DNA of 63,196 bases, filler included, from Asterionella formosa (taxonomy: Eukaryota), in the NCBI GenBank assembly GCA_002256025.1. It is 18 parts of 18 records of this genome, joined end to end, with 100 filler letters (N's around TTAATTAATTAA, not from the genome) between each part and the next. Parts side by side here need not be neighbours in the genome. Positions count along the whole stretch, not along the records: positions 5,913 to 35,648 come from NKIB01000971.1; 17 more parts are not named here. The stretch is one strand, 5' to 3'. This document shows positions 3,746 to 61,231 of the stretch, piece by piece. Each line of letters opens with the position of its first letter. The stretch's first letter is position 1. The translations under genes and the position numbers were made by a program. The notes under the pieces were generated by a model. The model saw only the letters and a program-made list of their open reading frames with translations. It was not told where the DNA came from and ran no database searches.

Positions 3746-3942
3746 GCATACCTACCCGGTAGTTATCATGATATTGCTTTTATGAATTTAACTGGCGCGA
3801 TAATTAGCCAGGCTGACGAGTTACTACCGGTACCAGGTAGTANNNNNNNNNNNNNNNNNNNNNNNNNNNNNNNNNNNNNNNNNNNNTTAATTAATTAANN
3901 NNNNNNNNNNNNNNNNNNNNNNNNNNNNNNNNNNNNNNNNNN

Positions 3943-4379
3943 GCGCCCGCTTGATCGGCGCGGCTGGCCCGCTGGATGTTACCTTTCATCGCGCCTTCGA
4001 CATGACCCGCGACCTCGGCGAAGCGCTGGAGGCGATCTACTCGTTGGGCGTGAAGCGGATTCTTACTTCGGGCGGGAAGCCGGATGTCCCGTCGGGTTGG
4101 CAGACCATTTCAGAACTCGTGAAACAATCCGCGGGTCGGGTTTCCCTGATGCCGGGAGGCGGCGTGACCCCGGAGAACCTCGCGGAAATCGTCACCTCGC
4201 CCGGAGTCCATGAAATCCACCTCAGCGCCCGACACCGGGTGAACGGCGGCATGACCTTTCGTAACGAAGGCTGCTTCATGGGAACGTTTTCCAAGGACGA
4301 CGAATACTCGTGGCGCGAGGCGAGCGAGTACCTCATCCGCCAGGCCAAGGCCGCACTTCTTTCCTCCATGACCCCATGA
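3943..4379 (+). CDS. cutC: Copper homeostasis protein CutC, 5'-truncated, bacterial
   Basis: VTFHRAFD, RILTSGG, LMPGGGVT and EIHLSA motifs; high GC; no introns. Confidence 0.93.
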
Positions 4380-5812
4380 GCAAGCCCATCCGTCTGGCCA
4401 TCGCTGGCATCCACATCGAGAGCAGCACCTTTTCCCCGCTGCGCACGTCGAAGGAGGATTTTCTGGCGACCCGCGGTGCGGAAATGCTCGGCCGCTATCC
4501 GTTTCTGGAGCTGCCGGAATTCGCGGCGATCGAACCGCTGCCGCTGGCCCATTTCCGCGCGATCCCCGGTGGTCAGGTGCGGCGCGGCGGCTACGAGTCG
4601 ATGAAGCAGGAGATCCTCGACCGTCTGACCGACGCGGGTCGGATCGATGCATTCTACTTCGACGTTCACGGCGCGATGGCGGTCGAGGAACTGGCCGATG
4701 CCGAAGCGGATCTGCTGGCCGCGCTGCGCAAAAAGCTCGGACCGGACCTGCCGATCACGTGCAGCAGCGATCTGCATGGCAACATCACCGACGCACTGGT
4801 GGCAGGAGTCGATCTCATCACCACCTATCGCACCGCGCCGCATGTCGACTGGATGGAAACCCGCGAGCGTGCGGTGAGATTGCTGCTGCGATGGTTCGGT
4901 GAAGGCGGCACGATTTTCCGCGCCCGGGTGGGGATTCCCGTGCTGGTGTCCGGAGAAATGTCGAGCACCGAGGCCGAACCAGGACGCGGGCTATATGAGC
5001 CACTGGAGAAGGAATCGGAACGGTCGGGCGTGTGGGATGCCTCGTTGTGGGTCGGTTATGCCTGGGCGGATCAGGCCCGCTCGATGGCCAGCGTTGTGGT
5101 GATCGGCGACGACAGGGACGCGGTCTCGACCCTGGCGAATGAAATTGCCCTCCGCTATTGGCAGGCCCGCGAAGAGTTCTGTTTCGGCTCCCCATCCGGT
5201 ACAGCCCGGGATTGCATCGATGAAGCGCTCCAGCTCGGCCACGACGCCGTGTTTCTCAGCGACGCTGGTGACAATCCCACCGCGGGGGCCGCAGGCGATG
5301 TGCCGCATACCTTGCAGGCTCTAATCGAACATCACGCCTTCGACGGCCATGGCCCGGCCACCGCGATCTTCGCCTCGATCCCTGATCCAGCTGCGATCCA
5401 GATCTGTCTAACAGCCGGTGTCGGCGCGAGCGCTTCCCTCCGCCTCGGCGGCAAGCTGGATCCCATCCATGGCAGTGAACTCCCGCTCACGGGTCGCGTT
5501 CTCACGCTTTCGAATCACGATCCCGTGGCTGGCTGGCAGGCGGTCGTGAAAGTCGGCGGCGCCCATGTGATCATCACCGAGCAACGCAAGCCCTTCCACA
5601 AGCGGCAGGACTTCCTCTCGCTTGATCTTGATCCGCTCCTGCACACCGTCACCGTGGTAAAGATCGGCTATCTGGAGCCCGAGCTGAAAGCCATGGCGTG
5701 CCATCATTTCCTCGTCCTTTCGCCCGGCGCGGTGCCGCCTTTGATCTCGTCGGTTCCTTATCAAAACGTCATCCGCCCGCTGTATCCGCTCGATGATGGA
5801 TTCGAGTGGCTG
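4376..5812 (+). CDS. MlrC-family (M81) metallopeptidase, bacterial, 3'-truncated
   Basis: IAGIHIESSTFS, DVHGAM, DLHGN, YRTAPHVD, DAGDNPTAG and VVKIGYL motifs. The ATG at 4376 overlaps the cutC stop (ATGA coupling). Confidence 0.9.
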
Positions 5813-6341
5813 NNNNNNNNNNNNNNNNNNNNNNNNNNNNNNNNNNNNNNNNNNNNTTAATTAATTAANNNNNNNNNNNNNNNNNNNNNNNNNNNNNNNN
5901 NNNNNNNNNNNNTTTGTATCAATGATACAAAATTGATACCATCAAGTTACCGTTGCTGATACCGTGTTTTGATACCAACCGTCACTTTTTGCCCGCAACC
6001 CGGAAATGATACAGCAAATTCGGAATGATAAGAACGACCCTTAGGGGCCGTTCTCATCATTTTTTTCGTGTATTACGGAATTTGAAATTTTTTGAAAATG
6101 TATCAGCAACAGTAACTCGATTTGAACTGAATTTCATTCATTCCAAAAGTGTCCCTTTATCACTAATTTGTGATCACATTGTATCATGGAGTAACATGGA
6201 TCTTCAACGGCAACAGGCTGGCAAAGATCATGTGTATATCCCTCCAGAAGATAATGATGGTCTTGATATCAAGCAGCAACATAAAATATAATTACCGGTA
6301 AACTATATATATAATATTAAAAACACACCATTCCATGAATC

Positions 6342-7663
6342 ATGCCATCGCCATTTGATTTACTCGATAATAACGATGATGAAAGTAGTGATCTTGATTT
6401 CTTCTTCCTCTGTCATCTGGCTAAGGAAGCAGAGGAAAAAGAACACTCATTCAAACGACGAAGGCGACGCTGTAAACGGCAGCTAAATTCATCCGAATGA
6501 CGACGACACGAAGGCACAAGTGGCACCACGAAAGAATCTCCTGGCAATCACATGTCAAGAAACTCAATCACGAAATTGCATTCGAGAAGACCTACAGAAT
6601 GTCACACAGAGCATTCAAAAAACTCACCTCCATGCTGGAAATTCAGATTGCAGGGAATTATTCCAAATATGGCACTTCTGAGCCCATGATTCCCGAAATT
6701 GTGGTAGCCATTGGTTTGCGATGGTTGGCTGGTGGCAGTTACATTGACATTCGTCATGCCTATGGTTGTAGCATTGCTTCACTTTATCGATGTCATGATT
6801 TGTTCATTGATGCTGTACTAAACTGTGAAGAACTCGAAATTATTTTTCCAGAAGAAAAAGAAGAATTTGTCAAATTGGCTTCCAGCTTTGAATGTAAAAG
6901 CTCCTAGGTCATGATGAGAGGATGTGTTGGTGCGCTATTGACAGCTTCCTAGCCACCATCAATCGCCCGACATTAGTTGAAAGTGGCAACAACCCTGGTT
7001 CTTTTTTTCGGTCACTACATGACTTATGGAATCAATTTCCAGGCTGTTTGTGATGCTGACTCAAGATTTATTTATTTTGGTGTGATTACACCGGGAAAAT
7101 GCATTGACCAAGTAGCTTTTGAACGAACTTCAATTTTCGATCAAGTTTCAGCATTCAATACTGGTTTTTATCTGGTCGGCGATGCAGCATACACATTGTC
7201 TGATGTAATTCTTTTTCCCTTTGTTGGCTCACAACGTGATGATCCAACACACGATACATTTGACTTTTTCCTCTCACAGCTGAGGATAAGAATAGAAATG
7301 GCATTTGGTCTTCTTCAGACAAAATGGTGTGTTCTGAAAAAAAACCTATTGACAAGTTTGGAAACATCTGCACGCATTCTTGATTCATGTGCTCGACTTC
7401 ATAGCTATGTGATTAATGAGAAGATAATTGATAATGAGATTATGGAGGATGACAATCAATTAATTACAGAGATAATTCCAGTCAGTAGTTTGTCACCCCT
7501 TGGTTGGGGCTACTTACCACCTGTGGAACCATTGTGTATATTGCCTGGAAGCTCTGTGATGAGAGATGTGATTCTTACTAGATTGCAAACCTTGGGCTTG
7601 CAACGACCTCCTGTGAATATAGAGAGGAGAAGGAAAGAATTACATGACATAAATTTAATGTAG
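6342..7663 (+). pseudogene. Harbinger DDE (DDE_Tnp_4) transposase, disrupted
   Basis: FEKTYRMS..F, LRWLAGGSY, GCVGA.D, QAVCDA..RF, YLVGDAAY and RIRIEMAFGLL motifs; stop at 6905 and frameshifts. Confidence 0.9.
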
Positions 7664-16599: not shown

Positions 16600-17362
16600 T
16601 CATCTAGTCTCTCCTTGCCTTTGTCATCATGATCAAAGTATCTAAGTAAGAGTCGTTCCTTAGCTACTCTTCCTTTGTCTCTTGAATAGACATGAAATGT
16701 GCCATAGAAACACGTTTTTCCTGATTGAACAATCTGGGATCGGTATCCCCTTCATAACCAAGATCTTTCCATTCCTTGTAGCACTCGGAACATTTGCCAT
16801 TCCAGATAAAAAGTGATATATTGGACAATCGATAGCGTGCAAACGTCAAGAGAAACATGACTGCAACAGAAGAAAGCAGAAAGGGATAATGGTCTATCAA
16901 CTATAGGATTAGACAGTGGGCAAGCGCTGGATCGGTAAGCAATGTCATACCGACATACTCAGTAATGGACATTAGATTGGTAGCGCAAAGCTACAGTTTC
17001 ATAGTACCAGCGTAGTAGTAGGTACAGTTTCTCAGTAGCCACATCATGTTCCAACCGAGTATTGGAACAAGGGGAAGATGGGAATGCTTGTAAGGCAAAC
17101 CTACCACAGTTTCACAGTACTAGGGTAGTAATAGGTATAGTTTCTTAGTACCTGTGTCATGTTCCGACCGGGTATTGAAACAAGGGGAAGATGGGAATGC
17201 GAAAATTTTATTCACAGATGTGTGTTGGTGCCCAGTAATCTAAATTAGTGTATGCTTTTTCTACTTTTCTTGCAGTTTCTAAATAGATAATTTAATGGTT
17301 TAGGGATGATCATTTATATTACTACGACGTGATGGCCAAACAATCTTGTTTTGTTTCCATAC
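16600..17362 (-). repeat. Paralog of about 42130-42873, including the last codons of a Harbinger transposase and a ~115-bp duplication
   Basis: Shared TTAGGGATGATCATTT...CGACGTGATGGCCAAACAATCTTG and GTAGCACTCGGAACATTTGCC blocks. Confidence 0.85.
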
Positions 17363-26324: not shown

Positions 26325-26847
26325 AGCATTACGGTATTGGTGGTGGTATCGAGTACTTTCATATATCTGTTCTCTAGTTAATTTTATATTATTTTAAAGT
26401 GGATGCCATCATTTTTCTGCAGAGCTTTTAATATTTTTAAAGGGCATTCACATACCGTTGCTATGTACATAAAAGGAATTCGCAATAACTATGCTCACTT
26501 CTGTTAGTCATGGTGCCGTCAACTGGAGTACCGGCAGACAAGAGGTAGTTGATAGGCAGCAGTAGAGATACGTTGGAAAAGGCTGGCGAAGGCCCCACTT
26601 CTACTCCTAGAAGAGTTTCATGTAGACTACGTGCTACTGCTGCAACTAGTGAGCCCTAGGAGCTATTAGAGCTTGCTCCTAGAAATTTCTTATGTACCGG
26701 TAGAGAGAAAGGTCGAGTGTTGTATTCGAGCATGTGAGCTACTCAGCAGGTATTATCAGGTATTTGCACGAGACATACTGGTAGTACATTACAAGCTAGA
26801 CCTACCACATGTACTGCATAGCGATTAGAATATACCAGGTACCAGGG

Positions 26848-29800
26848 TGTCAAGATTTAGTACTGCGTGCATGTTAGTTCAGTCGAACTAATCAATCTTG
26901 AATAATATTCCAGCCAAAATCCCGTATTGAAATGCTGTGAGAATTTGAACAGCATCGATTGCCAAGAACTATATCAGCAAACCAAGGTAAATATTCGATT
27001 GGATAATGTTCTAAGTAATCAATATTTCAATGAAGGAAAGGTATATATGCAATGCAGATAGCATTGAATATTCACGATTGTTGTACTAAGTGAGTGGAGT
27101 TGAGTTGTCAGTTGAGAATTGTATGTCTAACAACACAATGAATATCTATATATATATATTTGGGAAGAGAACCTTAATAGTTGGTCATGTGAACAATTAC
27201 AAGATAGATCATATAAGATCAAAATATGGTGGGATTAGAACAGAAGGTTTTAATACACTGAGCTTGTCTAGAAAGAGCTAGCATTGCAGTCAGACTGCAG
27301 AAGAATTTAACGTGCTTGCAAGCGGATCAACTTCGTTTTGCAACATGACTGAAGACAAAGGTGAGACCATTCGCCTTGTGAAGCTCAATGGCGAGGACGC
27401 CAATTGGCATTAGTGGAGTGTGAAGACACTGGCACTAGCCAAGACAAGAGGATTCAAGAATGCCTACATGAAGGATACCAATCCATGCAGCGATGCTGTC
27501 TACAAAACTACAGGCAAAGACGATGTCAAGAAGATCTACGAGATGAACGATTGCGCATAACAGCTCCTGGTTATGAGTTGCACTGGGATTGCGTTCGGTT
27601 TGGTCAACCAAGGTCGCTATGTTCCTAACGCTACAAGTGACCTAATCCAACTGTCAGGACAGTTCAACAAGTGCATCTGTGAGGGGAAGATGCAAGACCC
27701 AAACAAACGGTTCATCCAACTCGAGTTGTTAAGGAATCAAATGGCGACAATTGATTCTGCCTACAAAAAGAAGGATCTCGAGATGATTGCCCACACACTT
27801 GACAAACTACCTAAGGAGCACTCAGAAGTGGTAACAATGATTGAGGCTATGCCATCCCTGTCACTAGAAGACCTTAAGGCCAAAATACGCGCGTTCTTCA
27901 AACTCAAGTTTAAGAACGAGAAGTCGGATGGCAAACTTGCTCTTGCTGCCTTTGGAACTAAGTTCAAAGGACTCTGCCGCAATTGTGGCAAGCAAGGACA
28001 CAAGGCAACCGATTGTCGAGTCAAGAACAAGGCGCACGGCGACGGAAACAGGCCTCCTCCGAAAGGCGTCAAATGTTTCAATTGCAACAAGCATGCAGGA
28101 CATATCGCTAAAGATTGCCCCAAACCCAAACGAGAACGTACAGCAACGAAAGAGACCGGCTTGTTTGTTGGCATGTGTGCGATTGACTATGAAGACATCG
28201 AAGCAAACGGTAAGGAACAAGATGTGAATGACAAGTACAACGAGAATGAGGATAAAGAGTGGACTTTCGTCAGTTTTTGCGAGGAAATTATTGATGATTG
28301 TGATGTAAAAATTAATAATAAAGAGTTTTGTGCCTCTGCTGTTGCTCCTCGATCTACTGCCCTACAGGAGAATTGGCTCGCTGATACTGGGGCAACTGCC
28401 CATATCACAATGAGTGACGTTGGTATGACAAATGTGTGCCCAGTCAGTGTCACAGTCGTTGTTGGTGATGGCTCGGAAATTGAATGCACGAAACGCGGTG
28501 ACATCAAGCTCACCGACAGAGAAAAGACTGTGACATTGTAGGATGTCCTGTACATGCCTAAGTTTCACAAGAACATCGTCATTTTGGGCGTCCTAATCCT
28601 TGACGGGGTCTACAATGACAGTTAAGAAAGGTCGTGTGGGACGTATTTCATTTAACAGAGAGACCAATGAAGTTCTCTATTATTTTAAAGGAAGTCGCGC
28701 GAGTTGTGCCGATGTCGTATCCATGGTTATTGCCCCATTGTCCCAGGGTGCCGATAGTACCAAAAACTTGTCTACAAACACCCATACAGTTATGAGAGGG
28801 GAGGAAAAAATGAAGTCACAGGACATCAACGAGGCACACAATATCTACGGGCATATTGGGGAAGCCGCACTACGTGCCACGTTCAAAGCACTGAAGATAG
28901 AACTTACTGGTACCCTCCTGTCCTGTGACGGATGCTCTAAGGCAAAGGCGAAAGTAAAGGCAGGTTCAAAAGTGTTGACTGTACAGGCTGTACTACCCGG
29001 TGAACTGATTTTCGTGGACACTTCCATTGTGAGAAGCAATTACTGGATGCTTGTGGTTGATCAATTCTCTGGAAAGTCATGGAGCTTTTTTGTTAAGAAG
29101 AAGAGTTTACTATCCAAAAAATTGTGGACGAGCTACTTATCAAGCTATTTGCAGCAAAGTATGTTATCAAGTATCTACGATGTGATAATGCAGGTGAAAA
29201 TCTCGAAATTTTTTCATTTATATGCACCAAGCATGGTATTTATATTGAATACATGGCACCAAATACACCTCAGCAGAACGGTGTTGTTGAGCGCAAGTTT
29301 GTCACCATACATGATAGAAGCTGTGCTGCTATGATCAATGCAAAGCAAAATGATGAGTTTCAAGGACTTCTTTGGGCAGAATGTGCCAACACAATGACTC
29401 AAGTGACAAATGTGGTTTCGAATTCAAGAAATATCAAGTATCCTGATTGGCTATGGTATGGGAAACAACCTACAATCTATTAGCACTTGAACCAATTTGG
29501 AAGAAATGGATATGTCACCATAAGAACTCCTGTGAATAAGCTTGACGATAAAGCAATTAAATGTGTCATGATTGGATACTCTGGAAACCACTCAGGAGAT
29601 ACCTACCGACTCTTTAACCATTTAACCAAGAAGGTGATTCAGAGCCATGATGTAAAATGGATAGCGTGGCATGGAGAAACAAAACCTACCGATGATCTGA
29701 CCATGTTCAAGACTGGGATTGATGAAATTGAGTTTGAGGAGGAACTTGACCAACCTGTTGCACCAACTCCGACTGTCATCCCAGATGATGAGACTGGATC

Positions 29801-32111
29801 ACTTTCGACTCTTAATGACTTGCAGGTCTCTGAAGCAGGGAGGAATGAAGCTCCTACTTCAAATCTGCTATTACAAGAGCTGAACAAGAGCTCAAGAAAC
29901 TTGGTCATGAAACTGCTCCAACAATGTCTACACTACGTTCTGGAAGATTGCATACTATTGTAGATGATGATCATGATCTGGATTCTAAGCCTACTTTATC
30001 CATATAGGTTCATTACATCTACAGCTCCGCACTTGCATCAGATCCAGGTGAACCCAAGACCTACAGTGCGGCACTGAAAGCAGATTACAGAGAAAAATGG
30101 ATTCCAGCAATCAAAAGTGAAATAAATGATTTTACAAAACGAAATGTCTGGTCGAAATTCCCATGATCAGAATTGCATGGACGCAAGCCACTTGGGAGTC
30201 GATGGGTCTTCAAGAAAAAGAAGGAACAAGACTTGATTACACGCTACAAGGCACATGTGGTTGTCAAGGGATATGTCCAAATCCCCGGTGTTGATTTTAC
30301 CGACTCGTTAGCACCTGTGGCTACAGATACAAGTATCAGAGTTGTCTTTGCAATCATCATGCACAAGAAGACATGGACTCTGGAGGTCATTGATGTCAAA
30401 TCATCCTTTCTTGAATGAGATTTAGAGGAAGACATCTACCTTGAATGGCCTGAAGGCGTTGTTGACTTTGGTTTTGAAGACAACAAGGTTCTCTCAGAAA
30501 ATTGAATTCTTCTAAGTAAAGCCATGTATGGAACGGTGCAGGCTGCACAACAGTGGTACAAGAAACTTGTGGAGCATCTGATTCTCATTGGAATGAAACA
30601 GAGCAAAGTGGATCCACGCATTTTCTTCTCGAAACATGATTTGAAATTGGTTCTAATTGTTTGTATCTATGTTGATGACTGCATTGTTGCAGGAGAACAA
30701 GCCGATGTTGACTGGCTTAAGGCTGAAGCCAATAAGCATTTCACCATAAAGGAACTCGGACCAATCAAGAAACATTTAGGAGTTTGGTATGACTGGGGAG
30801 AGGATGCTGATGGAAGATTTCTTGAATCTGCTATGGAGAATTTCGTTGAAGGAATGTTTGAAGATTGTAAGAATCTCTTTGGACGTTATCCCGCAATTGC
30901 ACCAACTCCCGGATTTCCAGGCACAAGTTTGTCCAAGAATGATGCCCACACTGTTCTACATAGTGAATACAGATCCATGGTTGAAAAAATCTTATACTTT
31001 GTAAAGAAGATATCTCCAATTTGTGCCAATGTATGTCGAGAATTGTCTCAGCATCTGGAGAATCCAGGAGAAGCTCATTGGAAGGCGGTTGAACATCTGT
31101 GTGCAGACAAGAAACATCGGCATATGAAGATGCGAACCCCAAAAGAAATGCGCCCAATGAATGTTGTTGACAGTGCATTTGCAATTAACCCTGATACTCG
31201 CAAAAGTACAAGTGCATGTCTCGGAACTATTGGAGCACGCTCCTTGGTGACTTGGTCATCCAAAGGACAGAACATTGTAACAACATTAAGCATGGAAGCA
31301 AGCCGAGTATGAAAGCCTAAGCGACGGTGTCATGGATACTACATTTGTTACAAATCTATTGGTTGAGGTCTACTATGTGGAACTGCCAGAAATAATTGCT
31401 GAGGATAACACTGGAGCGATTTTCCTAAGCAAAAACCAACAAGTTGGATCAAGGACAAAGCATATTGATGTCAGATATCATTTTATACATGAGAAGACTG
31501 AAGATGGATATGTTGTTGTATTCTATGTACAAACATGTGAAAACCTTGGTGACCTGCTGTCAAAGAATGTAACTCAGAAGGTGCATGAATCGCATGCATA
31601 TGATAATTGAAATGGGACAATGGATTGTTGGAACTGGAACAGGGAGGATGTCAAGATTTAGTACTACGTGCATGTTAGTTCAGTCGAACTAATCAATCTT
31701 GAATAATATTCCAGCCAAAATCCCGTATTGAAATGCTGTGAGAATTTGAACAGCATCGATTGCCAAGAACTATATCAGCAAACCAAGGTAAATATTCGAT
31801 TGGATAATTTTCTAAGTAATCAATATTTCAATGAAGGAAAGGTATATATGCAATGCAGATAGCATTGAATATTCACGATTGTTGTACTAAGTGAGTGGAG
31901 TTGAGTTGTCAGTTGAGAATTGTATGTCTAACAACACAAATAATATCTATATATATATTTGGGAAGAGAACCTTAATAGTTGGTCATGGGAGCGATTACA
32001 AGATAGATCAAATAAGCTCACAACAAGGTGGGATTAGAACAGAAGGTTTTAATACACTGAGCTTGTCTAGAAAGAGCTAGCATTGCAGTTAGACTGCAGA
32101 AGAATTTAACA
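26848..32111 (+). mobile_element. Full-length but defective Ty1/Copia retrotransposon (family A); LTRs 26848-27312 and 31649-32111; TSD CCAGGG
   Basis: Gag start at 27345, two CCHC knuckles, protease WLADTGAT, integrase LRCDNAGE and PQQNGVVER, RT YVDD, RNase H RTKHIDVRYHF, PPT AGGGAGGA. Many stops and frameshifts. Confidence 0.95.
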
Positions 32112-32171
32112 CCAGGGTACCGGTAGTTTATACTCTGTGCTCTGAGCAGTAAGCTGCCAGGTAATCCCCCA

Positions 32172-34358
32172 TGTCAAGAATATTAGCCCGAGTCACAAGG
32201 TTTGTGGACACGATTGTAATCAAATGAGTCGAATATTGCATTGCCACGTCAATCAGCTGTCTAACAAAATCAAAGATTGACGATTTCTATGGAAATGTTA
32301 AGTGGAAACTCGAGGAGAGTCTTAGAAAGACTTTGCGGGAAACAAAGATGAATGGAGATTATCAATTGAGGAAATATTGTTTGACAGGAAGGTCAATAAG
32401 TCTATCTAGCAGGAATACTAGAAGCAGAGAAGAGAGAGAAAGTAAGTGGTACTAGGTATTACTACGAGCACTTAGGAGTCTACGTGAAGAGAGACCCAGT
32501 CCATGGGAGGGAGTACGGACCTTTTCAACACGCTTTAAAGCAGAAAGGATTTGAAAGTGTACTCAAAAAGATGGGAATTGACGACGAATTGTCAGGAGTG
32601 CGGTTGCTAATGTTTGATGGTACCGATGCCAAGTGGCATGTTTGGAAAGTGAAGTTTGTAACCTTCACGATGACATTCCAGACATATTCACAAGACAGGT
32701 ATGCTATTCATTTATTTTGTATCTTTAGAATTCACACGAAATATAATTTATGTAAAAGAATAAGAGAATTCATATTGGATGCTGACAATATTGATGGTAG
32801 GGATGATTGTTGATATGCTTCATGCACCCAGTTGCCGACAACCACATCGCTTCGATTTTCTCCATCGATTCATGCCCGATAGCACTCCGAAAATTTGCAT
32901 TCGATAACACATACTAATTCGAACGGATATTGAGTTTAGCATTTCAAATTCAATATAAAATGATTCGTTCTGTACCTGTTTTGTGCTCATTAGTGTTGGT
33001 TGTTACTTGGATCACAAATCATGTTGCGATATTTCTCGAGATCCATTTCGCTCCGTTTTTCTCAATCAATTGAGGGCAGATTGCAATCAAACAGTTTGTA
33101 GTGAAGTTGTCTTTCGCAATGATTTATCCTCTAAAACATCTATCTTGAACTTGTAAAATATTTTGTTGTAACATCAACTAGTCCTGCCTTGGAAATAGCC
33201 GTATGATTGTGAACCATCACATGAAGCCACAACAAGTAATCTTGTTTAGTATAATAGTAAATATTATTTATGTGAAGTGCACAACCATAAACTGTTGCAT
33301 GAATAAAGACACCACAAATATCCTTACTATTTCACAAAGGAACAAGATGCATGTCGTAAATGAATTAGCCTCAAGGGCAGGACTAAGAACTTTGAAAATG
33401 AATTATTTGAACATCAACTAATTCAGTCTCAAGTTCAAAGTTTTTTTGAAATCTTCACATGAAACCGTTAAAAGTAAGCTTTTCTACGGGAAGAGTAGCA
33501 TTAATTCATGTGAAGTACCACATAATTAAAACTCATACATAGAACAAATTTCGAAAAGTGGCATATTTTGCTGCTTAGATGGGAATGTGGAAAGTTTTCA
33601 AGCATGACACTGTCAAGAAGCAAACACTTAAAACGAGATAATTTTTCTAATTAAAGAATATGTATTAGCCGGGAAGACTATTTACAAGGCAAGATTGTTC
33701 GTGAAGGGATATAAGCAAATCCCAGGTGTCGATTTTATTGAGGCATTTGCTTCAGTTGCAAGCAATGCGACAATTGAAACGGTACTAGCAGTGACGATGT
33801 ACAACGGCTGGCGAGCGGAGGCTATTGATGTGGAAGCAGCATTCCTAAATGCGGACGTTGACGAGGACAGTAATATTGAGCCCCCTCAAGGTTTGATTGG
33901 ATTCAATTCTGATGCACATTTTTGCAAGCTTGTAAAGGCTATGTACGAGATAGTACAAGCTCCATGATGCTGGTCCAAGACGTTTGCGAAATGTGTCACC
34001 AGTAAACCAGGTATGACAACGAGCAAGATCGACCTTATGCTATTAATGCACCGGAACAATAATGGACAAATTGAAAGTCTACTTTTTATTTATGTGGATA
34101 AAGGTATCATATGTGGGACTCCAAGTGCAGTGGAGTATATGAAAAAGGTTATCAAGGAAGATAACATTGTGGACAATATGACTAAGAATGTGAAGGAACA
34201 GATTCACACAAGATTGTCTGAACCAGTTCAGAGTGGAATGATGTTACAGCCTCTTGAGTGTGGCAATGGGGAGGATGTCAAGAATATTAGCCTGAGTCAC
34301 AAGGATTGTGGACTCAATTGTAATCGAACGAGTCGAATATTGCATTGCCACGTCAATT
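32172..34358 (+). mobile_element. Degenerate Copia (family B): 5' LTR 32172-32530, gag start, foreign insert about 32660-33670, deleted RT/RH, truncated 3' LTR from 34276
   Basis: LTR TGTCAAGAATATTAG...TTCAACA matches 40462-40867. FDGTDAKWHVWKVKF (gag); YKAR...KGYKQIPGVDF and IDVEAAFLNA (RT). Confidence 0.88.
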
Positions 34359-35274: not shown

Positions 35275-35648
35275 TGTCAAGAATATTAGCCCGAGTCACA
35301 AGGATTGTGGACTCGATTGTAATCGAACAAGTCGAATATTGCATTGCCACATCAATCAGCTGTCTAACGAGATCAGAGATTGAAGATTTCTATGGAAATG
35401 TTAAGTGGAAACTCGAAGAGAGTCTTAGAATGACTTTGCAGGAAGGAAAGATGCATGGAAAGGAAACATTTAGATTAGCTTATAATTTAATTTGAGTTTT
35501 AGATTATCAACCGAGGAAACAGTGTGTTAATTGACAGCAAGGTCAATTAGTCTATCTAGCAGGAAGGCTAGAAGCAGAGACAAGAGAGAAAGTAAGTGGT
35601 ACTAGGTAGTACTACGATCACGTAAGAGTCTACGTGAAGAGAGACCCA
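35275..35648 (+). repeat. Copia family B LTR, cut by contig end
   Basis: Near-identical to 40462-40835. Confidence 0.92.
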
Positions 35649-35748
35649 NNNNNNNNNNNNNNNNNNNNNNNNNNNNNNNNNNNNNNNNNNNNTTAATTAA
35701 TTAANNNNNNNNNNNNNNNNNNNNNNNNNNNNNNNNNNNNNNNNNNNN

Positions 35749-38092: not shown

Positions 38093-39537
38093 TCATCCCT
38101 CGAAAGTGCCTTGCTTTTGTTTAGCATCCTTCATCCATTGGTTGTCATGTCCCTCAAAAGCTTCGTTTGGATCATACATTGCTAGTCTCAATCGATCTGT
38201 CCACATTGGTCCATCAAGTTCCAAAATGGTTCGATAGGCATCTTCAAATGTTCGACATGCCAACGACAAGTTATTAAAGTCATTCACATCATTCCCAAAT
38301 GGGTCGTCCAATTCTATGGACACATGCTCCAATCCCATAAATCCAAATGTTAAAAAGAAGACAATAATACAATGAGCCACTAGTTTTGAATTGTCCTTGA
38401 TTAATGCAAAGGGAATAGTGAAAAGATAAAAGAATAGAAATGTGCGTGCCATTTGGACCAGAGGAAATGGAAATGGGGTGGTTAAGAATTTTTGCATGCT
38501 GTAAAACAATGGGAGAGTAAGTGATGAGTTTATGTATAGGTCGCAGTAGCAGTAGTATTTTTCATCATTGGAAATGTGAATTTTCCAACATTTTATAAAA
38601 TGCTTGACGGAAGAAGTCGAAAAATGAAGAAAGCGTCCTGCGTTGATATATATCAAAGTATCTTTACGTACCCATAATATCCCACCATGAAATTATCTAC
38701 AATGGTCATCAATTGCAATTCTTGTTGTGTATGGATGGTTCCCTTTGGCAATCGATGTCTTGCACTCCGAATGACTTGTTTCGTCATTAGACTGAGACGT
38801 ATTGGCACTCTCATGGTTGCTTCTTCTTCACTGACTCTGTGACGAGCAGCAGCCCATTGTATATTCGTGTTATTTGGATCTAAAACCATGAGTTGTTTTT
38901 GCAGTAACTTTTGCATGTTTGCGTCCATTTGCGGCAATGCCCATCCAGGTATGGCATCAGATGGATAATCAATAACTGCCATGGAAGTTCGAAGCAGTAA
39001 TAAAGAGTGGTACACCACATCATGCCTCCACTGTGATATTTCCGTTGCTGTTGTGTTGTGCTCTACGCTGTTACTATCTTCGTCGTCATTATCTGTTGTC
39101 GTTGCTGCTACAACAATGGCTGCCGTTTGCACCAACTGATCCGTATGAAAGACCATCTTGGTCAAGTATCCCATGGCTTCATTGTACCGGCCCATACTTA
39201 CATTGGCTCGAGTGACAGTCAAAAAGGTAACAAGCAAGGTCAAGAAGGAATGGCCCTTGTCCGTGACATTGATGTTCCATCCCAACGAGTGGCACCCGTA
39301 TTGCAACACTATGCAAACGCCCACATTCCATAGGCAATACAACAGGACCTTGTGCCACACAGAGCCCCAGCATTGGAACAACACGTTCCAGTGAGCACTG
39401 GATTCGTATGTGACTGTGAAGGAATGACTAGTAGGAGGAATAGTTGTTGTTGTAGTAGTAGTAGGAGTTGATGATGGCGATGTTGTCCGCCTTTTAGCAC
39501 AATACCGGTACCAACAAGAGGATGGAATGATTGTCAT
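38093..39537 (-). CDS. Bestrophin-family (UPF0187-type) channel; exons 39537-38672 and 38498-38093
   Basis: FL.V.R.N....RY.EA, TPFPFPLVQM and GLE.VSIELDDPFGND.NDF motifs. Intron GTACGT...TTACAG (38671-38499) joins GYYG to MQKF in frame. Confidence 0.9.
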
Positions 39538-39687: not shown

Positions 39688-40867
39688 AATTAAGTCGTAC
39701 GCAACGCCGGGTGTACCAGGAAAGACATTGAACAAGAATGACGGTGAAGTCATTATGGAAGGAGAATATCGAAAAATTGTGGGCAAGTTACTATGGTCTA
39801 CAAAGAAGGATTCGCCGGACTGTGCGAATGCGGTTCGGGAACTATCGGCTCATTTAAGTTGCCCAGGTGAAGAACAATGGCATGCAGTGGCAAGAGTCAT
39901 TGGTTACCTATCCAATATGGAGGATAGAGTTCTCAAGTTGCGTAAGCCAAAAGAGTTAAGAGTCATTGCCTACGTGGACAGTGACTGGGCTGCTAATAAG
40001 GTTAACAGGAAGAGCACGACTGGCTATCTTGTTACTATTGGCGGGGCACTTATCAGTTGGCAGTCGAAGGGACAACAAACGGTTACGCTGTCCAGTACGG
40101 AAGCCGAGTATGTGGCGATGTCCCAGTGTGGACAAGAGATCAAGTTTATAGCAATGCTACTGAATGAGGTTACTGGTGGTAAGGTCATGTTACCAAGTAT
40201 CCTACGAGAAGACAATACAGGAGCTATTTTTATCGCGAAGAATCAGCAAATCGGAACCAGGACAAAACATATTGATATTAAGTATCATCATGTAAAGGAC
40301 ATGATTGAGGATGAAGAATTGGAAGTCATTTTTATAAGGTCGGAAGATAATTTTGCGGACATTATGACCAAGAACGTGAAGGAACAGATTCATACGAGAT
40401 TGTCCGAACCAGTTCAGAGTGGAACGATGTTACAGCCTCTTGAGCGTGGCAATGGGGAGGATGTCAAGAATATTAGCCCGAGTCACAAGGATTGTGGACT
40501 CGATTGTAATCGAACGAGTCGAATATTGCATTGCCACGTCAATCAGCTGTCTAACGAGATCAGAGATTGAAGATTTCTATGGAAATGTTAAGTGGAAACT
40601 CGAAGAGAGTCTTAGAATGACTTTGCAGGAAGCAAAGATGCGTGGAAAGGAAACATTTAGTTTAGCTTATAATTTAATTTGAGATTTAGATTATCAACCG
40701 AGGAAACAGTGTGTTAATTGACAGGAAGGTCAATTAGTCTATCTAGCAGGAAGGCTAGAAGCAGAGACAAGAGAGAAAGTGAGTGGTACTAGGTAGTACT
40801 ACGATCACGTAAGAGTCTACGTGAAGAGAGACCCAACCCGCGGGAAGGAGTACGGACCATTTCAACA
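39688..40867 (+). mobile_element. Copia family B 3' part: intact RT end and RNase H, PPT, 3' LTR 40462-40867
   Basis: YVDSDWA, RKSTTG, LSSTEAEY, EDNTGA and RTKHIDIKYH motifs; TG...CA LTR. Confidence 0.93.
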
Positions 40868-40889
40868 CCAGGTACCAGGTCGTTCAATG

Positions 40890-41556: not shown

Positions 41557-42815
41557 NNNNNNNNNNNNNNNNNNNNNNNNNNNNNNNNNNNNNNNNNNNN
41601 TTAATTAATTAANNNNNNNNNNNNNNNNNNNNNNNNNNNNNNNNNNNNNNNNNNNNTCGCCTGTTGCAAGGCGAGATCCAATTGGCAATTTGGATGACTT
41701 CGTCTATGAATGAAAAATGCGTTAGGCCTTCTAACACTTTTGCTTAATTGTCGACTACCCCACTAAATAAATACATATGGAATCCAACATTATAAAAAAT
41801 TCAATTACATAAATTGTGAAATTAGATTATAAATTAGACCACCCTGTTCCGTCATGTTGCAATAAGAATGACGAAAATTTCTGGTTACAACCGCATATTG
41901 ATCCATCAGTGTGTATGTTGTTATCTTGTCGTTTCAGTTCGGCAACAGTGTGTCCATTTCTTTGTTTTATAGCTGGCGATAAATAGAAATGAATCCGTAG
42001 AGCACCATTTTTTTAACTATTATCCAAAGCTCCTCCATGGACTATATCTCCACGCATGAGAAAGATGAATTTGAATGGTATGGACAAATGTATTGCATGT
42101 TTCTCATCTGCACAGTTATCCCATACATTCATCTAGCCTCGTCTCCTTGCCTTTGTCATCATGATCAAAGTATCTAACCAGTAAGAGTCGTTCCTTACTT
42201 TTCCGTTGTCTCTTGAACAGACATGAAATGCGCCATAGAAACACGTTTTTCCTGATTGAACAATCTGCAATTGGTACCCCCTTCACAACCATTATCGTTC
42301 CATTCCTTGTAGCACTCGGAACATTTGCCATTCCGCCCAGATAACAAGAAATGATATATTGCACTATCGATAGCGTGCGAATGTCAAGAGAAACAAGGAA
42401 GCAGAAAGGGATAATGGTCTGTCAACAAAGGATTAAACAGTGGGCGAGTGCTGTATCAGAAGCGTTTCAGCACCGACATACTCAGTAATATACATTAGAT
42501 TGGTAGTGCAAAGCTACAGTTTCATAGTACCAGCGTAGTAATAGGTACAGTTTCACAGTAGCCACATCATGTTCCGACCGGGTATTGAAACAAGAGGAAG
42601 AAGGGAATGCTGGTAGGGCAAACCTACAGTCTCACAGTATTAACGTAGCAATAGGTACAGTTTCACAGTAGCCACATCATGTTCCGACCGGGTATTGAAA
42701 CAAGGGGATGATAGGAATGCGGAAATTTTATTCACAGATGTTGGTGCCCAGTAATCTAATTTAGTTCATGCTCATACTAATTTTCTTTTAGTTTCTAAAT
42801 AGATAATTGTATGGT

Positions 42816-43525
42816 TTAGGGATGATCATTTACATTACGACGTGATGGCCAAACAATCTTGTTTTGTTTCCATAAAATATCAAAATGTTCAATGAGTTTA
42901 CTCTTGAAGAACTGTAAACTTAAATGCCGAACCACTCGAACTGTATCAACATTCTTTGTTAGCACTTCAATATTGAAGTTATCATTTGGATCTGGCACTA
43001 AATTGCGAATTGCATCAGGAATTTGTCCATCACCATCATTACCAGGACCCATTCCAGAGGTATCAATTGTTCGCAAACTGGCTAATCCAAGTACTGCCGG
43101 TCTTGCAACTGTATTTAGCCTTTGAATAGCAAAAGGTGCTTCAGCACCATTTAATTGGCCTAATGGTCCTTCCCAGTCACTTAAAACACCATTTTGCCAT
43201 TGCAGGTCTAAGCCATCAATATCAAGTAACATGTTATGAAATGCACAACATGTTAGCCAGACTTTGTCAGGTTCTGTTACTCCATGTATTCGGATGCCTG
43301 ATTTTAAAATCCGCCAGCGTCCCTTTAGTATTCCAAAGGTACATTCCACATCTTTTCTAAGTGACTCCAGCCATTCAGACCATCTAAGTTCTTGTTCCGT
43401 TTCTGGGTTTTTGGTTGGAGGCACTGTTGTAGACCATTTTAGATATCCATTGTCAACTATCAAAAAGCATCCACTATACTTTATGGATACAACTGCTCCA
43501 TTCCGATCTTTTTCTTTAAGCTCAA
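42816..43525 (-). CDS. PIF/Harbinger transposase, C-terminal half
   Basis: IVDNGY, WSEWLESLRKDVECTFGILKGRWRIL and CCAFHNML motifs. Confidence 0.9.
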
Positions 43526-48088: not shown

Positions 48089-49429
48089 TGTCAAACTTAA
48101 ACTTTCACTTTACTAACTGGATTGTTTCGAGATAATGGTCTCGAAACACTCTCATTACTCACATTGCATTTTAACATTTTTTCCTGACCTCTGATTGCTT
48201 TTCCTTGCGTTGTGCCTTTTACCACGTCAGCCCAGGTAACTCTTGGTAGCGGCTGTACGGTTTTAACTGTAGTACTGTACTCTCTCGTGTCTACTATACC
48301 CTTCACTCCTGTCCTGTGGCAGTCAGCTCGAATTTTTTCAACACGCTCCTCGGCTGTTGCCAGGGAACTGGCAGTCAGGGTATCGACGTGCGCAGCTCCT
48401 AGAAGCACATTTCGGAATGTTCTGAACAGGTTTCCTTGCAGTGGTTTCGTAAAGAAATCCCCCAACATTTCCAACGTTGGACAATGGCGAATGGTGATTC
48501 CTTCATCTACCGATCGATCCTTAATCCAGAAATAGCGGATGTTGATATGCCGAGACTTTGGCCCTGCCGAAATTCGTCCGTTCTTCTCGAGTTTAATTGC
48601 GCTCTCGTTGTCTTGTTAGAAGAAACTTTCTTGAATCTTGTATCCCTGTGCTTCAAGAAACATTTTTACCCACAGCGTGTTTGGGAGATAATCGCTGGCA
48701 CCCACAAATTCAGCCTCCGTCGAACTCTTTGTGTTCAATTTCTGCTTGGTCGACTTGCATATGATGCCTCCAGTTCCAAAAGACATCACGCCACCGGTGT
48801 GGCTCTTCATGTCAGGGTGCACGGCAAAAGCCGCATCCACCCACGACCTCATCTTGCCCATGTCGTCGGCTCCAATGGTGTATTCCACATCCATACTTCC
48901 ATTTATGTATTCCAACACCCGTCGTAGCTTTTTCTGATCTTGTTTGGTGCTTTTTGATACCCTGGTGCATAGGAAACTGACCGCCAGTAGCAAATCCGCT
49001 CTTGCCCTGATCGAAACGTAAAGCAGTTTCGCCACTACACTATGGAAAATCTCGGTTTCATTCTGGCTCAAAAAGGAGACTCCTCATCCACTTCAAATAA
49101 ACACTTCTGGGCTGGCGTGGCCACTTCCCGTGTGATTTCCATCCCTGACTCGCTCAATGCTTCCTTAAGATATTCCTTCATAGTAATGACAGCTGTGCCC
49201 TTGCCTGTGTATTGTATGTGCATACCCAGGAAAATGTGCTCTGTTCCTCTGGTGACAGTCATTTTATCAAAGCGCTCCTCGATTTTTTCGATAATTGATG
49301 TCACGACGTCCGGGTCCACATGCGAAATCTTGTTGTCGTCTACATACCACGCAATCGTGCACTGCTTCCCGTTGATTGTGCAGTTAGCAATGCAAGAGTC
49401 GTAAGGGTTTAACACAAAACCCATCTCTT
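48089..49429 (-). mobile_element. Copia (family C) RT/RNase H and 3' LTR 48343-48089
   Basis: WYVDD, WVDAAFAVHPDMKSHTGG, KSSTEAE and GDFFTKPLQG motifs; PPT GAGGAGCG followed by TGTTG...TGACA. Confidence 0.88.
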
Positions 49430-51497: not shown

Positions 51498-53008
51498 GAT
51501 ATTGATATTGGACCGAAATCTCCAACATCAACTTCCACTTCTACTTTTTCAATTGAATTAGATGATGAACCTCTGCTTACATGTTTCCTTAATCATCCCA
51601 TCTTGACAGACAATATTCAATATCCTCTGGATTATCATTTAATACATGATAGACAATTGCTGGATATACAATTGATTCTCAATCAACAAACACATCCATT
51701 AAAATTTCCTTCTATCAATTTTCATGATATATTCTTAATATGTTTTGTGAAGAACCCAGGAGATACTTGGCGTATTGCTATTCCTACATCATTATTGGAT
51801 CCTATTATTAATTGGTATCATCAGATGTTAGCTCATGTGGGTATGACAAGATTAAATGCTACAATTGCTACACATTTTTATCACCCTATATTAAAAACAA
51901 GAGTGGAACATATTGTAAGAGTATGTGAAGCATGTCAACGGACAAAATTACCTGGTACTGGTTTTGGTGAACTTCCACCCAGGAATGCATTATTATTACC
52001 ATGGTCAGAAGTCGCAGTAGATCTAATTGGTCCATGGAAGATAACAGTGGCTGCTCAAACGATTGAATTTCGTGCTCTAACTTGTATTGACACAGTCACC
52101 AATTTAGCAGAAATTTCACGTATCATCAATAAAACATCAGAATATATTGCAATGAAATTTGAAAATGATTGGTTAGCCAGATATCCCCGTCCAGAACGTT
52201 GTATACATGACAATGGAGGTGAATTTACTGGTGCTCCTTTCTTACACATGTTAGTATTGAATGGAATCAAAGATGTGACTACCACAGTAAAGAATCCACA
52301 AGCAAATGCTATCTGTGAACGTTTCCATCAATCTATCAGCAATAGTCTACGAGTTATGTTAAAGGCTCATCCTCCAATCAATGAATTTCAAGCCCAAAAT
52401 ATTGTGGATACATGTTTTGCAGCTGCGTCATATGCAGCTCGAGCTACTATTCATAGTATATTACGTATTTCACCAGGAGCATGGGTTTTCCAACGTGATA
52501 TGATATTAAATATTCCTTTGATTACAGATTTACAATTAATACATCAACGTCGACAGGTGATAATTGACGAACGTTTACGTCGTGCAAATTTCCGTCGTCG
52601 ATCTTATGATTACAAAGTGGGTGACGAGATTTTAATATTATTGGATAATCCTACTACTTTGGATGATCGTGGACGAGGTCCTTATACTATTATTCAAGTA
52701 CATGCCAATGGTACAGTTACTTTTCAACGCACTATGCATATTACCGAACGAATTAATATTCGTCGTATCAAACCTTTTCATAGGTAAAAGGTTTTCCCTC
52801 AAGTGTGGGAGAGTGAGCAATCCTGCACATCGATACAGATATATATAGAGTTGGGGTTATGTCAAATATATCGGAATTCAATAATGAGAGAACTCGACTA
52901 ACACCCATTCTATACTTTGATGTCAGTTCAGGAAATGAGTTATACATAAGGATTAATTAATAAGCTCATATATTCAACAAATACTACTACTTCTAGTTAG
53001 ATACTTCA
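51498..53008 (+). mobile_element. Ty3/Gypsy 3' part: integrase ORF to 52787, PPT, putative LTR 52814-53008
   Basis: HHCC zinc finger, AVDLIGPW, HDNGGEF, NPQANAICER and GPY motifs; GTGGGAGAG followed by TG...CA. Confidence 0.88.
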
Positions 53009-59366: not shown

Positions 59367-61231
59367 TACCCAGACCGTGATTTCGCCGTCATCGAATCAC
59401 TAACACTCGTTTCTTTATTCCAATTGCCACAGAAATCGGCGTCTGCCCAAACAACAAATGAATGATCATCCGGAAGCAGGATTATTCCCTGATCGGCAGT
59501 GCCAATCAAATATTGGACAATGTTCCACACAGCCACAGCGTGGGAGGCCTTGGGATTAGCGGAGAATCGAGCGCATTGATGAACCGCATACGCAATATCC
59601 GGTCGAGTGGACTTTTCCAAGAAATTGAGCTTCCCAATAATGGATCGGTATGACCAGTGCTCGGCAAAATCCTCACCATCAATGTCTCGCTGCAGAATGA
59701 CCGTAGAGGATGCGGGAACTCCCTTGGATTTCGTGGTATTCGTAAAGCCAATATCACTGGCAATGGCCGCTATGAGGTGGGGTTGTGTAAGGGAAATTGA
59801 GTTCGAATCAGCAGACAGCGTCACCTTGATCCCTAAGTAGTCGGAGATATTCCCTTCATCTGTCAGGTTAAAACTAGCCCGCATGAGCTCGATGCATTTG
59901 TCAATCAGTCGAGCTTCTGGACTGATAAAAATCCCATCATCCACATACACCATGAATATAGTAACTCCTTTATAGAACACACACTCATCTGCGTCACTCT
60001 GTATAAATCCAATAGCCAGCAAACCTCTTTTCAAATGCTGTGACCAAGTTCTCCCAGCTTGCTTTTGTCCGTAAATGTTCTTCAGGATCTTGAGACAGTG
60101 GTCCATTTGACCTCCCTCCGGCATCTCAAACCCATGTGGAATCTCCATGTACAAATCACACTCCACATCCGCTTGTGGATAGGCCAGAGTAAAATCAACC
60201 TGCCTAGTACTCCAACCATGCATCAGTGACAGCAGAAGCAGCAACCGGTTAGGTGGCCAGGAAAGGGTTGCAGCATAGGTTTCCCAGTAATTAACTCCGT
60301 ATTCTTGTTTACCACCATGTAAGTTCAACCTGGCTTTCCACTTATAGACCTCCCTTGAGGCAATACGGCGTTTCCTTTTCATTGCCCACACGCACGGGAG
60401 GATCTTGGTCCCTAAAGAGACCGCTGACTTGGACACCACCTTCCAGTGATGATTGTTATGATGGGCCATAACTTCAGCCTCCATAGCGGCTATAAACTGT
60501 TTCCTGTCTGGCTCCCTCAGAGCCTGGTCGGCGCGCAACGTGTCAGGGTCGGAGGTTTTGGCCACGAAAGCTATTGGATCATCCATCATGACTTGTAGTC
60601 GATATTCCTCATCACCATCTATGTCCTCAAGCACCGTAGAAGAGCGCAGAAAACCCTGTTCCACGCTTTCTTGGAGTCGACAGGAAGGCTTGTGTCGCTG
60701 TGACCAACGCACTCCTGCCGCAGGAGGTGGGGAGTGGTCCGTCGGAAGAATTTGAGGACCATCCGTCTGAGATTGGTGGGGAAAGGGCCCACCCTGGGGT
60801 ACTACCTCCGGAGCGATAGCGGAGTGGGGATGGGGTATCGCATTCTCTTCCGGACCACCAACTGGGGGCCATAGGTCCGGGATCCTTGTCACCCCCTCCA
60901 TCACTCTATCCACAATAGTAGGGGGTAGGGTTGACTTGCGCCTGACTTGGCTACTGGAAAAATGAGTGGCCGAGAGCCATCCAGTCTCATAGGAGTCATC
61001 CCCTTTTCCAACGGTTTCGAACATGTCATCAAACGCAACATGAAATTGGGGGGAAACCAGACCAGTCTTAATGTTTAATACTAGGGCCACAGACCTTGCA
61101 TGCCGGGGGGATTGTCCCAGGTACACTCCCACCCTTGCTCTCTTGTACCACTTAGGTATGCTCTGACCTGCCGCCAGCTGATTAGATAGGGCGTACACGG
61201 GGCACCCAAAGGGGCGAAAGGACCCAATCTT
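59367..61231 (-). mobile_element. Copia (family D) pol fragment, intact frame
   Basis: GVYLG.SP.HA, SPQFHV.FDD, KWKARLN, QVDFTLAYPQA, VYVDD and ADADFCG motifs. Confidence 0.93.

Follow-up and report, generated by a model that had tools for sequence, protein, structure and literature searches.

A conserved self-complementary sequence at the expected primer-binding position in a diatom-related clade of Copia elements

Background

How does an LTR (long terminal repeat) retrotransposon start DNA synthesis if the place for a tRNA primer is taken by something else? The question is raised by a 63,196-nucleotide stretch of joined Asterionella formosa records (GenBank assembly GCA_002256025.1), here called the window, in which positions 5913-35648 are the uninterrupted part. 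Its 26.8-41 kb region holds copies of Ty1/Copia-type LTR retrotransposons. Directly behind the 5' LTR of two families of these, here called A and B, stands a short palindrome, where a primer-binding site (PBS) belongs.

To our knowledge, the priming modes of LTR elements comprise the 3' end of a tRNA, half of a tRNA, and self-priming as in Tf1. An initial annotation of the window proposed that the palindrome serves instead of a tRNA site. The analysis below follows it through other copies, other families and the published literature.

Results

The initial annotation had read T-GCTTGCAAGC-G after the family A 5' LTR and C-GCTTTAAAGC-A after that of family B, neither with a TGG start. Direct reading bears this out. 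Positions 27313-27324 are TGCTTGCAAGCG, with a perfect 10-bp palindrome, and positions 32531-32542 are CGCTTTAAAGCA. Both start at the first base past the LTR. The two 5' LTRs end in ..AATTTAAC(G) and ..TTTCAACA, both of the ..AACA type; the final G in family A is an A in its 3' LTR and in an intact copy from a metagenome (locus L114). LTR ends in the window were set by LTR pairs and by the 3' LTR ends ..TTTAACA/CCAGGG and ..TTTCAACA/CCAGGT, where the slash marks the boundary.

Perfect 10-bp palindromes begin at 157 of 61385 window positions (1 in 391), a number inflated by TA repeats and by the linker islands described below. Going by this window frequency alone, two of them would stand equally far from two LTR ends with a chance of order 1e-5.

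Each window copy had also been described as one CpG-type change away from a 12-mer, and other copies do read CGCTTGCAAGCG (A) and CGCTTTAAAGCG (B). Contigs of four public runs, X1, X2, X6 and X7, were mapped to the window; the runs with this stretch are labelled algae or freshwater metagenomes, and ~41,000 contigs of one run map to families A and B. The A at 32542 is replaced by G in X1 (54607 of 56370 in depth, 27 contigs), X6 (67.8 of 73.3) and X7 (101.7 of 101.7). For family A, a 3918-nt contig of X6 joins 32112 straight to 27314 and reads ..AACA/CGCTTGCAAGCG, and L114 reads ..AATTTAACA/CGCTTGCAAGCG. Because other copies are intact, the window copies are taken as decayed forms of the perfect 12-mers CGCTTGCAAGCG and CGCTTTAAAGCG, with changes in the terminal CpGs.

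The Pfam domains of family A in the window come in the Copia order, zf-CCHC, Pol_BBD, SH3_retrovirus and RVT_2, and P0001, an intact polyprotein of 1410 amino acids from a public metagenome, has the same order (alignment A1). The element has what is expected of a Copia LTR element: TG..CA ends (TGTCAAGA..TTTAACA), a polypurine tract (PPT), an LTR pair and a short target-site duplication.

Relatives were looked for in several ways. A search with the gag-protease open reading frame (ORF) gave 16 longer proteins, all unnamed, with 24-85% identity to that query. Seven of them were aligned over gag only (A2), and metagenome contigs were scanned with this alignment; of 601 candidate stretches, 91 encode relatives, and 79 loci were retained. 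Genome contigs, scanned with the full alignment, gave 10 loci, every one on contigs filed under bacterial metagenome-assembled genomes (MAGs), and gave no match with A2. Viral contigs held no relative by the query with the reverse transcriptase (RT) ORF or by the full alignment A1. A pattern of PPT plus LTR start matched viral contigs 113 times by chance, with none of the matches related to these elements.

The MAG loci L222-L230 are short contigs that carry relatives of the clade inside bins assigned to Gammaproteobacteria, Sphingobacteriaceae, Cytophagales, Rhodobacteraceae and others. These are most likely eukaryotic contamination of the bins.

Many relatives come as permuted contigs of ~5 kb, which run from the end of pol through PPT, LTR and junction to gag, so that LTR start (PPT followed by TGT..) and LTR end lie on one contig. 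In L114 (contig UPTN01001460.1), positions 1-1966 equal 4905-6870 at 100%, a period of 4904 bp or the internal part plus one LTR; this is either a head-to-tail array of family A or an assembly loop. Contigs of D, E, F and G show the same kind of permutation. The LTR boundaries of the relatives were thus set independently of the palindrome, by PPT-TGT starts and terminal inverted repeats such as TGTTAAAG..CTTTAACA in L119.

Metagenome and MAG contigs add four families, D, E, F and G, to A and B, each with a perfect 12-bp palindrome at offset 0 (Table 1). This makes six families in which the palindrome stands at offset 0 after ..ACA or ..TCA. Counted by locus, the perfect 12-mer is at offset 0 in 7 of the 7 undecayed lineage loci that contain the 5' leader. 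Family G alone extends it to 14 bp, including the last A of the LTR. One further relative, L226 (29% identity), was searched for an LTR pair and none was found; it was left unclassified, as was L228.

What is conserved at these junctions is self-complementarity. An alignment of eight junction rows (A4) has 48 pairing cells, 95.8% of which pair, versus 31-46% if partners are offset by 1-3 columns. In 500 shuffles neither the pairing nor the covariation score ever came up to the observed value; as the rows are related, this count is not a probability. Pair 3/10 is C:G in 4 rows, U:A in 3 and A:U in 1; pair 6/7 is A:U in 3 rows, G:C in 3 and U:A in 2. Pair types have changed on both sides several times across the rows. 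Non-pairs and wobbles are confined to three decayed copies, and all these departures are CpG-type decay. In intact copies positions 1, 2, 4, 5, 8, 9, 11 and 12 (C1, G2, T4, T5, A8, A9, C11, G12) are invariant.

The proteins of these families are 29-62% identical to family A and the downstream leaders cannot be aligned between families. The palindrome is the only conserved block; no other was found in leaders of 17-220 nt. The degenerate pattern TTTAACACGYTTNNAARCG served as a control: its 29 matches in viral contigs include only 2 perfect palindromes, and none of them is found in a Copia element or near a relative of P0001.

The expectation that self-complementarity would be kept across intact members therefore holds in the six families with a readable junction, with compensatory changes at 2 of the 6 pairs. 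The same six families support the wider claim of a palindrome in the PBS slot, with self-complementarity as the conserved property and with no site for a tRNA 3' end (TGG..). The reading of the palindrome as a putative stand-in for a tRNA site is well supported.

The known primer types were compared with the junctions one by one. A PBS for a tRNA 3' end is rejected: there is no TGG after the LTR in 6 of 6 families. Distant Copia elements from the same scan (L131, L172, L186) do have TGGTATCAAGAGC-like TGG sites before gag. A half-tRNA-iMet site is rejected too. The GGTTATGGGCC-like motif, which we take to be the mark of such sites, is absent from the junctions of the lineage, and sites of this type are present in four other distant Copia elements of that scan (L130, L136, L155, L157). 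Self-priming of the Tf1 type would need a complement of the 12-mer in the LTR, and with up to 3 mismatches allowed this occurs in 0 of 6 LTRs; the longest exact complementary words in the LTRs are 6-8 nt, in 2 of the 6. A second copy of the 12-mer was not found elsewhere in the available parts of the elements. In the window itself ARAGORN found 0 tRNA genes, and Rfam gave 0 matches at gathering score.

The last candidate is the conserved hairpin site of fungal GalEa elements, a palindrome with a second, complementary box downstream. It was rejected as well. The palindrome here leaves out the last A of the LTR (except in G), the fungal protein motifs are absent, and a second box occurs in 1 of 5 families only. 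That box was counted as an exact complementary word of at least 6 nt within 70 nt downstream, and the one case is TTGCAA in A.

RNA folding bears on how the palindrome could be used. The 12-bp self-duplexes have computed energies of -21.1, -16.6, -11.8, -12.4 and -13.2 kcal/mol, while the 4-bp mini-hairpins have -2.5, -2.5, -0.1, -0.1 and -0.5 kcal/mol. The two central bases, which would be loop in any hairpin, are complementary in every family. Because the centre stays complementary, and because self-duplexes are stable and mini-hairpins are not, a duplex between two RNAs is favoured over a hairpin.

In 5 of 6 families, base pairing between the two flanks of the palindrome, 30 nt on each side, is stronger than in shuffled sequences; of 500 shuffles, the number that reach the observed value is 0 for A, 17 for B, 0 for D, 2 for F and 0 for G. 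For A, B, D and E, minimum-energy folding predicts a stem between U5 and leader with the palindrome at its tip. Such a stem resembles the hairpin of the retroviral dimer initiation site (DIS), and also the U5-leader stems around a PBS.

P0001 has named relatives in two diatoms only, Fistulifera solaris (P0031, 37% across 99% of the query) and, as P0067, Fragilaria crotonensis; the near clusters of a protein atlas have no taxa recorded. A tree made with FastTree only (first 950 residues, 42 rows, 757 columns, local support) has a clade of 31 rows with support 99. Families F and G lie in one half of it and A and D in the other, and the Fistulifera protein is inside, so the palindrome families span the deepest split. 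Two elements of the half-tRNA type fall outside this clade, on long branches that join each other; those of the TGG type are further out, with plant Copia. The ancestor of this large clade probably had the palindrome already. Only diatom proteins are named among the clade's members, and the site type was read for 4 of the 31 rows. Alignment A1 has two tandem CCHC knuckles, CX2CX4HX4C. Tandem CCHC knuckles are reported for the diatom elements CoDi6.2-6.5 (Maumus et al. 2009).

Table 1 Features of the window, with strand, and LTR junctions of relatives; a slash marks the LTR end
Feature	Sequence	Location	Strand	Basis or identity
Family A candidate target-site duplication, 5' side	CAGGG	26843..26847	+	Read directly; partner 32113-32117
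Family A 5' LTR	TGTCAAGA...AATTTAAC(G)	26848..27312	+	LTR pair; 96.6% identity to 3' LTR
Family A junction palindrome, decayed	TGCTTGCAAGCG; intact copies CGCTTGCAAGCG	27313..27324	+	Read directly, X6 contig, L114
Family A gag, protease, integrase, RT and RNase H, with stops and frameshifts		27345..31465	+	82-88% identical to intact polyprotein P0001
Family A PPT	AGGGAGGA	31641..31648	+	Sequence reading
Family A 3' LTR	Terminus ..AATTTAACA, then CCAGGG	31649..32111	+	LTR pair
Family B 5' LTR	TGTCAAGA...TTTTCAACA	32172..32530	+	LTR comparison
Family B junction palindrome, decayed	CGCTTTAAAGCA; G at 32542 in most other copies	32531..32542	+	Read directly, contigs
Family B internal remnant, heavily deleted (gag start, RT piece, RNase H end)	MGIDDELSGVRLLMFDG.. 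at gag start	32572..34275	+	Sequence
Family B PPT	GGGGAGGA	34268-34275	+	Sequence
Family B 3' LTR stub, 82 bp		34276..34357	+	LTR comparison
Further B-like LTR copy, 3' end and junction masked by N		35275..35648	+	LTR comparison
Truncated B-like element, RNase H end	PPT GGGGAGGA at 40454-40461	39704..40461	+	PPT
3' LTR of truncated B-like element	Terminus ..CATTTCAACA, then CCAGGT	40462..40868	+	LTR comparison
Bestrophin_2 gene, two ORF pieces, between the LTR copies at 35275 and 40462		38093-39537	-	ORF
Other Copia element, 5' end expected beyond window		59369-61231	-	Domain match, RVT_2 E 4e-35; RT 26% identical to P0001
Copia RNase H remnant		48511-49047	-	Domain match
Integrase with H2C2 zinc domain, Ty3/Gypsy-like		51498-52787	+	Domain match
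PIF/Harbinger-type DDE_Tnp_4 transposase		42816-43463	-	Domain match
M81 / MlrC-type metallopeptidase ORF		4265-5812	+	Domain match, DUF1485 E 3e-86, MlrC_C
Family A junction	..AATTTAACA/CGCTTGCAAGCG	L114		100% to P0001
Family A junction, old copy	..TTGAACA/TACTTGCAAGCG	L115		98% identity
Family D junction	..AATTTAACA/CGTTTTAAAACG	L116, L117, L118		gag 62% identical to family A
Family E junction	..CTTTAACA/CGTTTATAAACG	L119		gag 60% identical to family A
Family F junction	..CATTTCAACA/CGTTTATAAACG	L123, L124		gag 30-35%, RT-RNase H 32% identical to family A
Family G junction	..TTCTATCA/CGATTATAATCG	L229		gag-integrase 29% identical to family A

Other features of the window

The start of the family A 5' LTR is corrected from 26844 to 26848. 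The length of its target-site duplication is ambiguous, since a 6-bp CCAGGG (26842-26847 and 32112-32117) is equally compatible with the insertion ends. It is thus either a 6-bp CCAGGG duplication, or a 5-bp CAGGG with an extra C after ..ACA. Such an extra C would have been copied from the last base of the primer, if that base was retained (G12, which pairs with C1). In the window, C and then CAGG(G/T)ACC come next after each of the two 3' LTR ends that can be read (32112-32117; 40869-40880), and both of these insertions sit within GGTACC-like repeats.

The LTRs at 35275 and 40462 do not bound one element, because the Bestrophin_2 gene intervenes. The stretch with the metallopeptidase ORF has 51% G+C, versus about 38-43% elsewhere in the window. 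There is a 110-bp tandem duplication (89% identity) at 42501-42720, with a related copy at 16978-17200.

The N blocks consist of 44 N, TTAATTAATTAA and 44 N. They lie at 1872-1971, 3843-3942, 5813-5912 and 35649-35748, and from there on recur at intervals of ~1969 bases up to 61331. The 12-base island between the N runs is a six-frame stop linker that is itself palindromic and raises palindrome counts.

Discussion

The end of U5 marks the position of the primer, so a primer must pair with the start of the palindrome. And because the conserved property is self-pairing, the simplest primer is the same 12-mer on another, or the same, element RNA. The favoured explanation is that the 12-nt sequence CG-N-TT-NN'-AA-N'-CG is the minus-strand initiation site (PBS) of a large Copia clade, and that its self-complementarity serves dimer-linked self-priming. 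We give this a probability of roughly 0.45.

It would work as follows. The palindrome would be displayed at the tip of the stem between U5 end and leader, and would pair with the same palindrome on a second element RNA, giving a 12-bp RNA duplex. One strand would then be cut at the 3' edge of the duplex, much as the RT/RNase H of Tf1 acts on its folded-back 5' end. From the freed 3'-OH, on G12 paired with C1, synthesis would run into the partner's U5-R. Dimerisation and priming would be one event, and a host tRNA would not be needed. That two co-packaged genomes pair and one of them is cleaved as a primer is what the initial annotation had proposed. As a model it fits the 12-bp duplex energies and the exact offset, and is plausible. 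The broader claim, that a whole old clade of diatom Copia does without host tRNA primers, with two co-packaged RNAs pairing through the palindrome and one being cut to prime the other, may be true, with the odds leaning somewhat against it.

Several points weigh against dimer-linked self-priming. The pairing between two RNAs, the cut, its position and the enzyme that would make it are things we infer from sequence. A long RNA primer (R-U5-palindrome) poses a problem for plus-strand transfer, because plus-strand synthesis could run on into it. Family E has no significant U5-leader stem (293 of 500 shuffles), and whole-leader folds have weak z-scores of -2.1, -0.3, -2.2, -0.1 and -0.4. The LTR boundaries of D, E, F and G come from one LTR per contig with PPT and TG..CA ends, not from LTR pairs. 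Locus L228, inside the clade on the tree, has an AT-rich leader without a clear LTR end or palindrome. Run X2 keeps the A at 32542 (G in 0 of 315.9). Finally, 15 tRNAs from 221 unrelated fetched loci have matches of at most 6 nt to the 12-mers; these are not host tRNAs and prove nothing.

Other uses of the palindrome have to be considered. It could be a dimer initiation or packaging site only, with a separate RNA, for example a host RNA ending in ..AARCG, pairing with its first few bases. The predicted apical position on the U5-leader stem in 5 of 6 families suits this, as do the eight invariant positions: a primer ending in ..AAGCG could pair with CGCUU, or with CGUUU by wobble. But five base pairs are far shorter than known PBS duplexes, position 3 in family G is an A (CGAUU), with which a primer end of ..AAGCG or ..AAACG would not pair, and the leaders of 17-220 nt offer no other conserved block. 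We consider this unlikely. A cis structure, as proposed for the GalEa site, would have RT recognise an apical hairpin and the cut RNA end snap back to prime. It has a printed precedent in the junction palindrome and hairpin of PBS-less fungal GalEa, and the U5-leader stems do flank the palindrome, in minimum-energy folds that draw the 4-bp mini-hairpin. Those mini-hairpins are barely stable, at -0.1 to -2.5 kcal/mol. Positions 5-8 would lie in the loop, yet they are complementary and pair 6/7 covaries, and the box like the second GalEa one is a 6-mer found in 1 of 5 families. Taken together this makes the cis structure quite unlikely.

It is also conceivable that the elements bind a host RNA, family by family, be it half or an internal stretch of a tRNA or some other RNA, and that the palindromy is incidental. 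Internal tRNA sites do occur in Copia, tRNA-Lys in FunCo1 and half of tRNA-iMet in copia and Ty5. Against this explanation, palindromy is perfect in each of the five distinct 12-mers, and the changes among them are compensatory. The loop of a canonical tRNA arm has 7 nt, so a tRNA arm cannot contain a perfect 12-nt palindrome, and the window has no Rfam match at gathering score; an internal host site is improbable. Least probable is a site acting at the DNA level, bound at the border of LTR and leader by a dimeric protein such as a transcription factor, a silencing factor or integrase. Palindromes are typical of dimeric DNA-binding proteins, 8 of the 12 positions are invariant, and the flanking CpGs decay in old copies. 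Tolerance of C, T or A at position 3 would however predict asymmetric combinations, of which there are none among intact copies, and the exact offset 0 from the end of U5 in all families points to priming.

Copia elements without a tRNA-type PBS are not new. Donnart et al. 2017 (BMC Genomics 18:410, PMC5445492) describe a "Conserved Hairpin Site" in fungal GalEa elements of Pezizomycotina. Its first box, CHSeq1, is 9 bp long and palindromic if the last A of the LTR is included (CTGATCAGT or CTAATTAGT), with central bases that vary symmetrically; CHSeq2 is its reverse complement, 12-41 bp downstream. The elements have TGT..CA LTRs and no LTR complement of the Tf1 type, and the site is printed there, in the passages that describe it, without a mechanism. 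Their proteins have the motifs KSRLVI, QTDD and CQPEA and a C2C4C4H zinc finger (PMC5445492). The elements described here are likewise Copia, with no tRNA-type PBS and with a short, symmetrically varying palindrome at the 5' LTR junction. Unlike GalEa, the palindrome is 12 bp long, has the form CG.TT..AA.CG and excludes the LTR's final A, after which it begins; those relatives that have names are diatom proteins, and alignment A1 has KARVVV/KARLVV, YVDD and SPICA/SPVCA as motifs.

The family G LTR ends (L229 924-931 and 1161-1168), TGTTA..TATCA, are the termini given for the crustacean GalEa elements CoRex1/2 (PMC3587641). This may hint at kinship between the palindrome clade and GalEa. Piednoel et al. 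2013 give TGGTAGCAGAGC for metazoan GalEa, and list CoDi accessions, in the portion that treats them, without a site for CoDi. The main-text passages of Maumus et al. 2009 on diatom CoDi elements hold no discussion of a primer-binding site. The Donnart paper is cited in work on miniature terminal-repeat retrotransposons (TRIMs) of bivalves (PMC6934838). No description of a palindromic site in algal Copia was found in the open-access literature, subscription journals and supplements being outside the scope of that search. With four of the 12-mers used as literature words, among the matches listed no title or start of an abstract was about retroelements. Fungal GalEa is the only printed precedent found for a junction palindrome instead of a PBS.

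Three other systems invite comparison. The Tf1 primer is 11 nt long and is made by an RNase H cut. As in Tf1, there would be no tRNA here, the primer would be the element's own RNA, a duplex of ~11-12 bp would abut U5, and a cut at its edge would be needed. The difference is that there is no complement in the LTR, so that the only possible partner would be the palindrome itself, in trans or by snap-back; the Tf1 PBS pairs with the first bases of its own transcript (PMC5445492, PMC6934838).

Elements like copia and Ty5 prime with half of tRNA-iMet. They share a primer site at offset 0 without TGG, but theirs lacks self-complementarity and does not differ between unrelated families. FunCo1 elements use an internal tRNA-Lys site (PMC5445492).

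Retroviruses provide the third comparison. The DIS of HIV-1 is a palindrome at the tip of the leader hairpin SL1, which dimerises the genomes and covaries to keep self-complementarity. The palindrome here is predicted to be apical in the leader as well, covaries, and could form an RNA-RNA duplex between genomes. In retroviruses the DIS exists in addition to a tRNA PBS and is distant from U5, whereas here the palindrome fills the PBS slot and no other conserved site is present. The retroviral DIS is also mentioned as a comparison for the GalEa site (PMC5445492).

Significance

The priming mode is a defining trait of LTR elements and retroviruses. What is new here is the palindrome in a large, diatom-related Copia clade, its two covarying pairs with three pair types each, the duplex argument for pairing in trans, and its presence across the deepest split of the clade. 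There is also a practical side for annotation: these elements are abundant, and LTR finders that insist on a PBS of the tRNA type will overlook or misjudge them.

These findings make dimer priming directly testable. If it is true, the hairpin site of fungal GalEa may be a second case of the same principle, and genome dimerisation and the start of DNA synthesis would in these elements be a single self-contained step.

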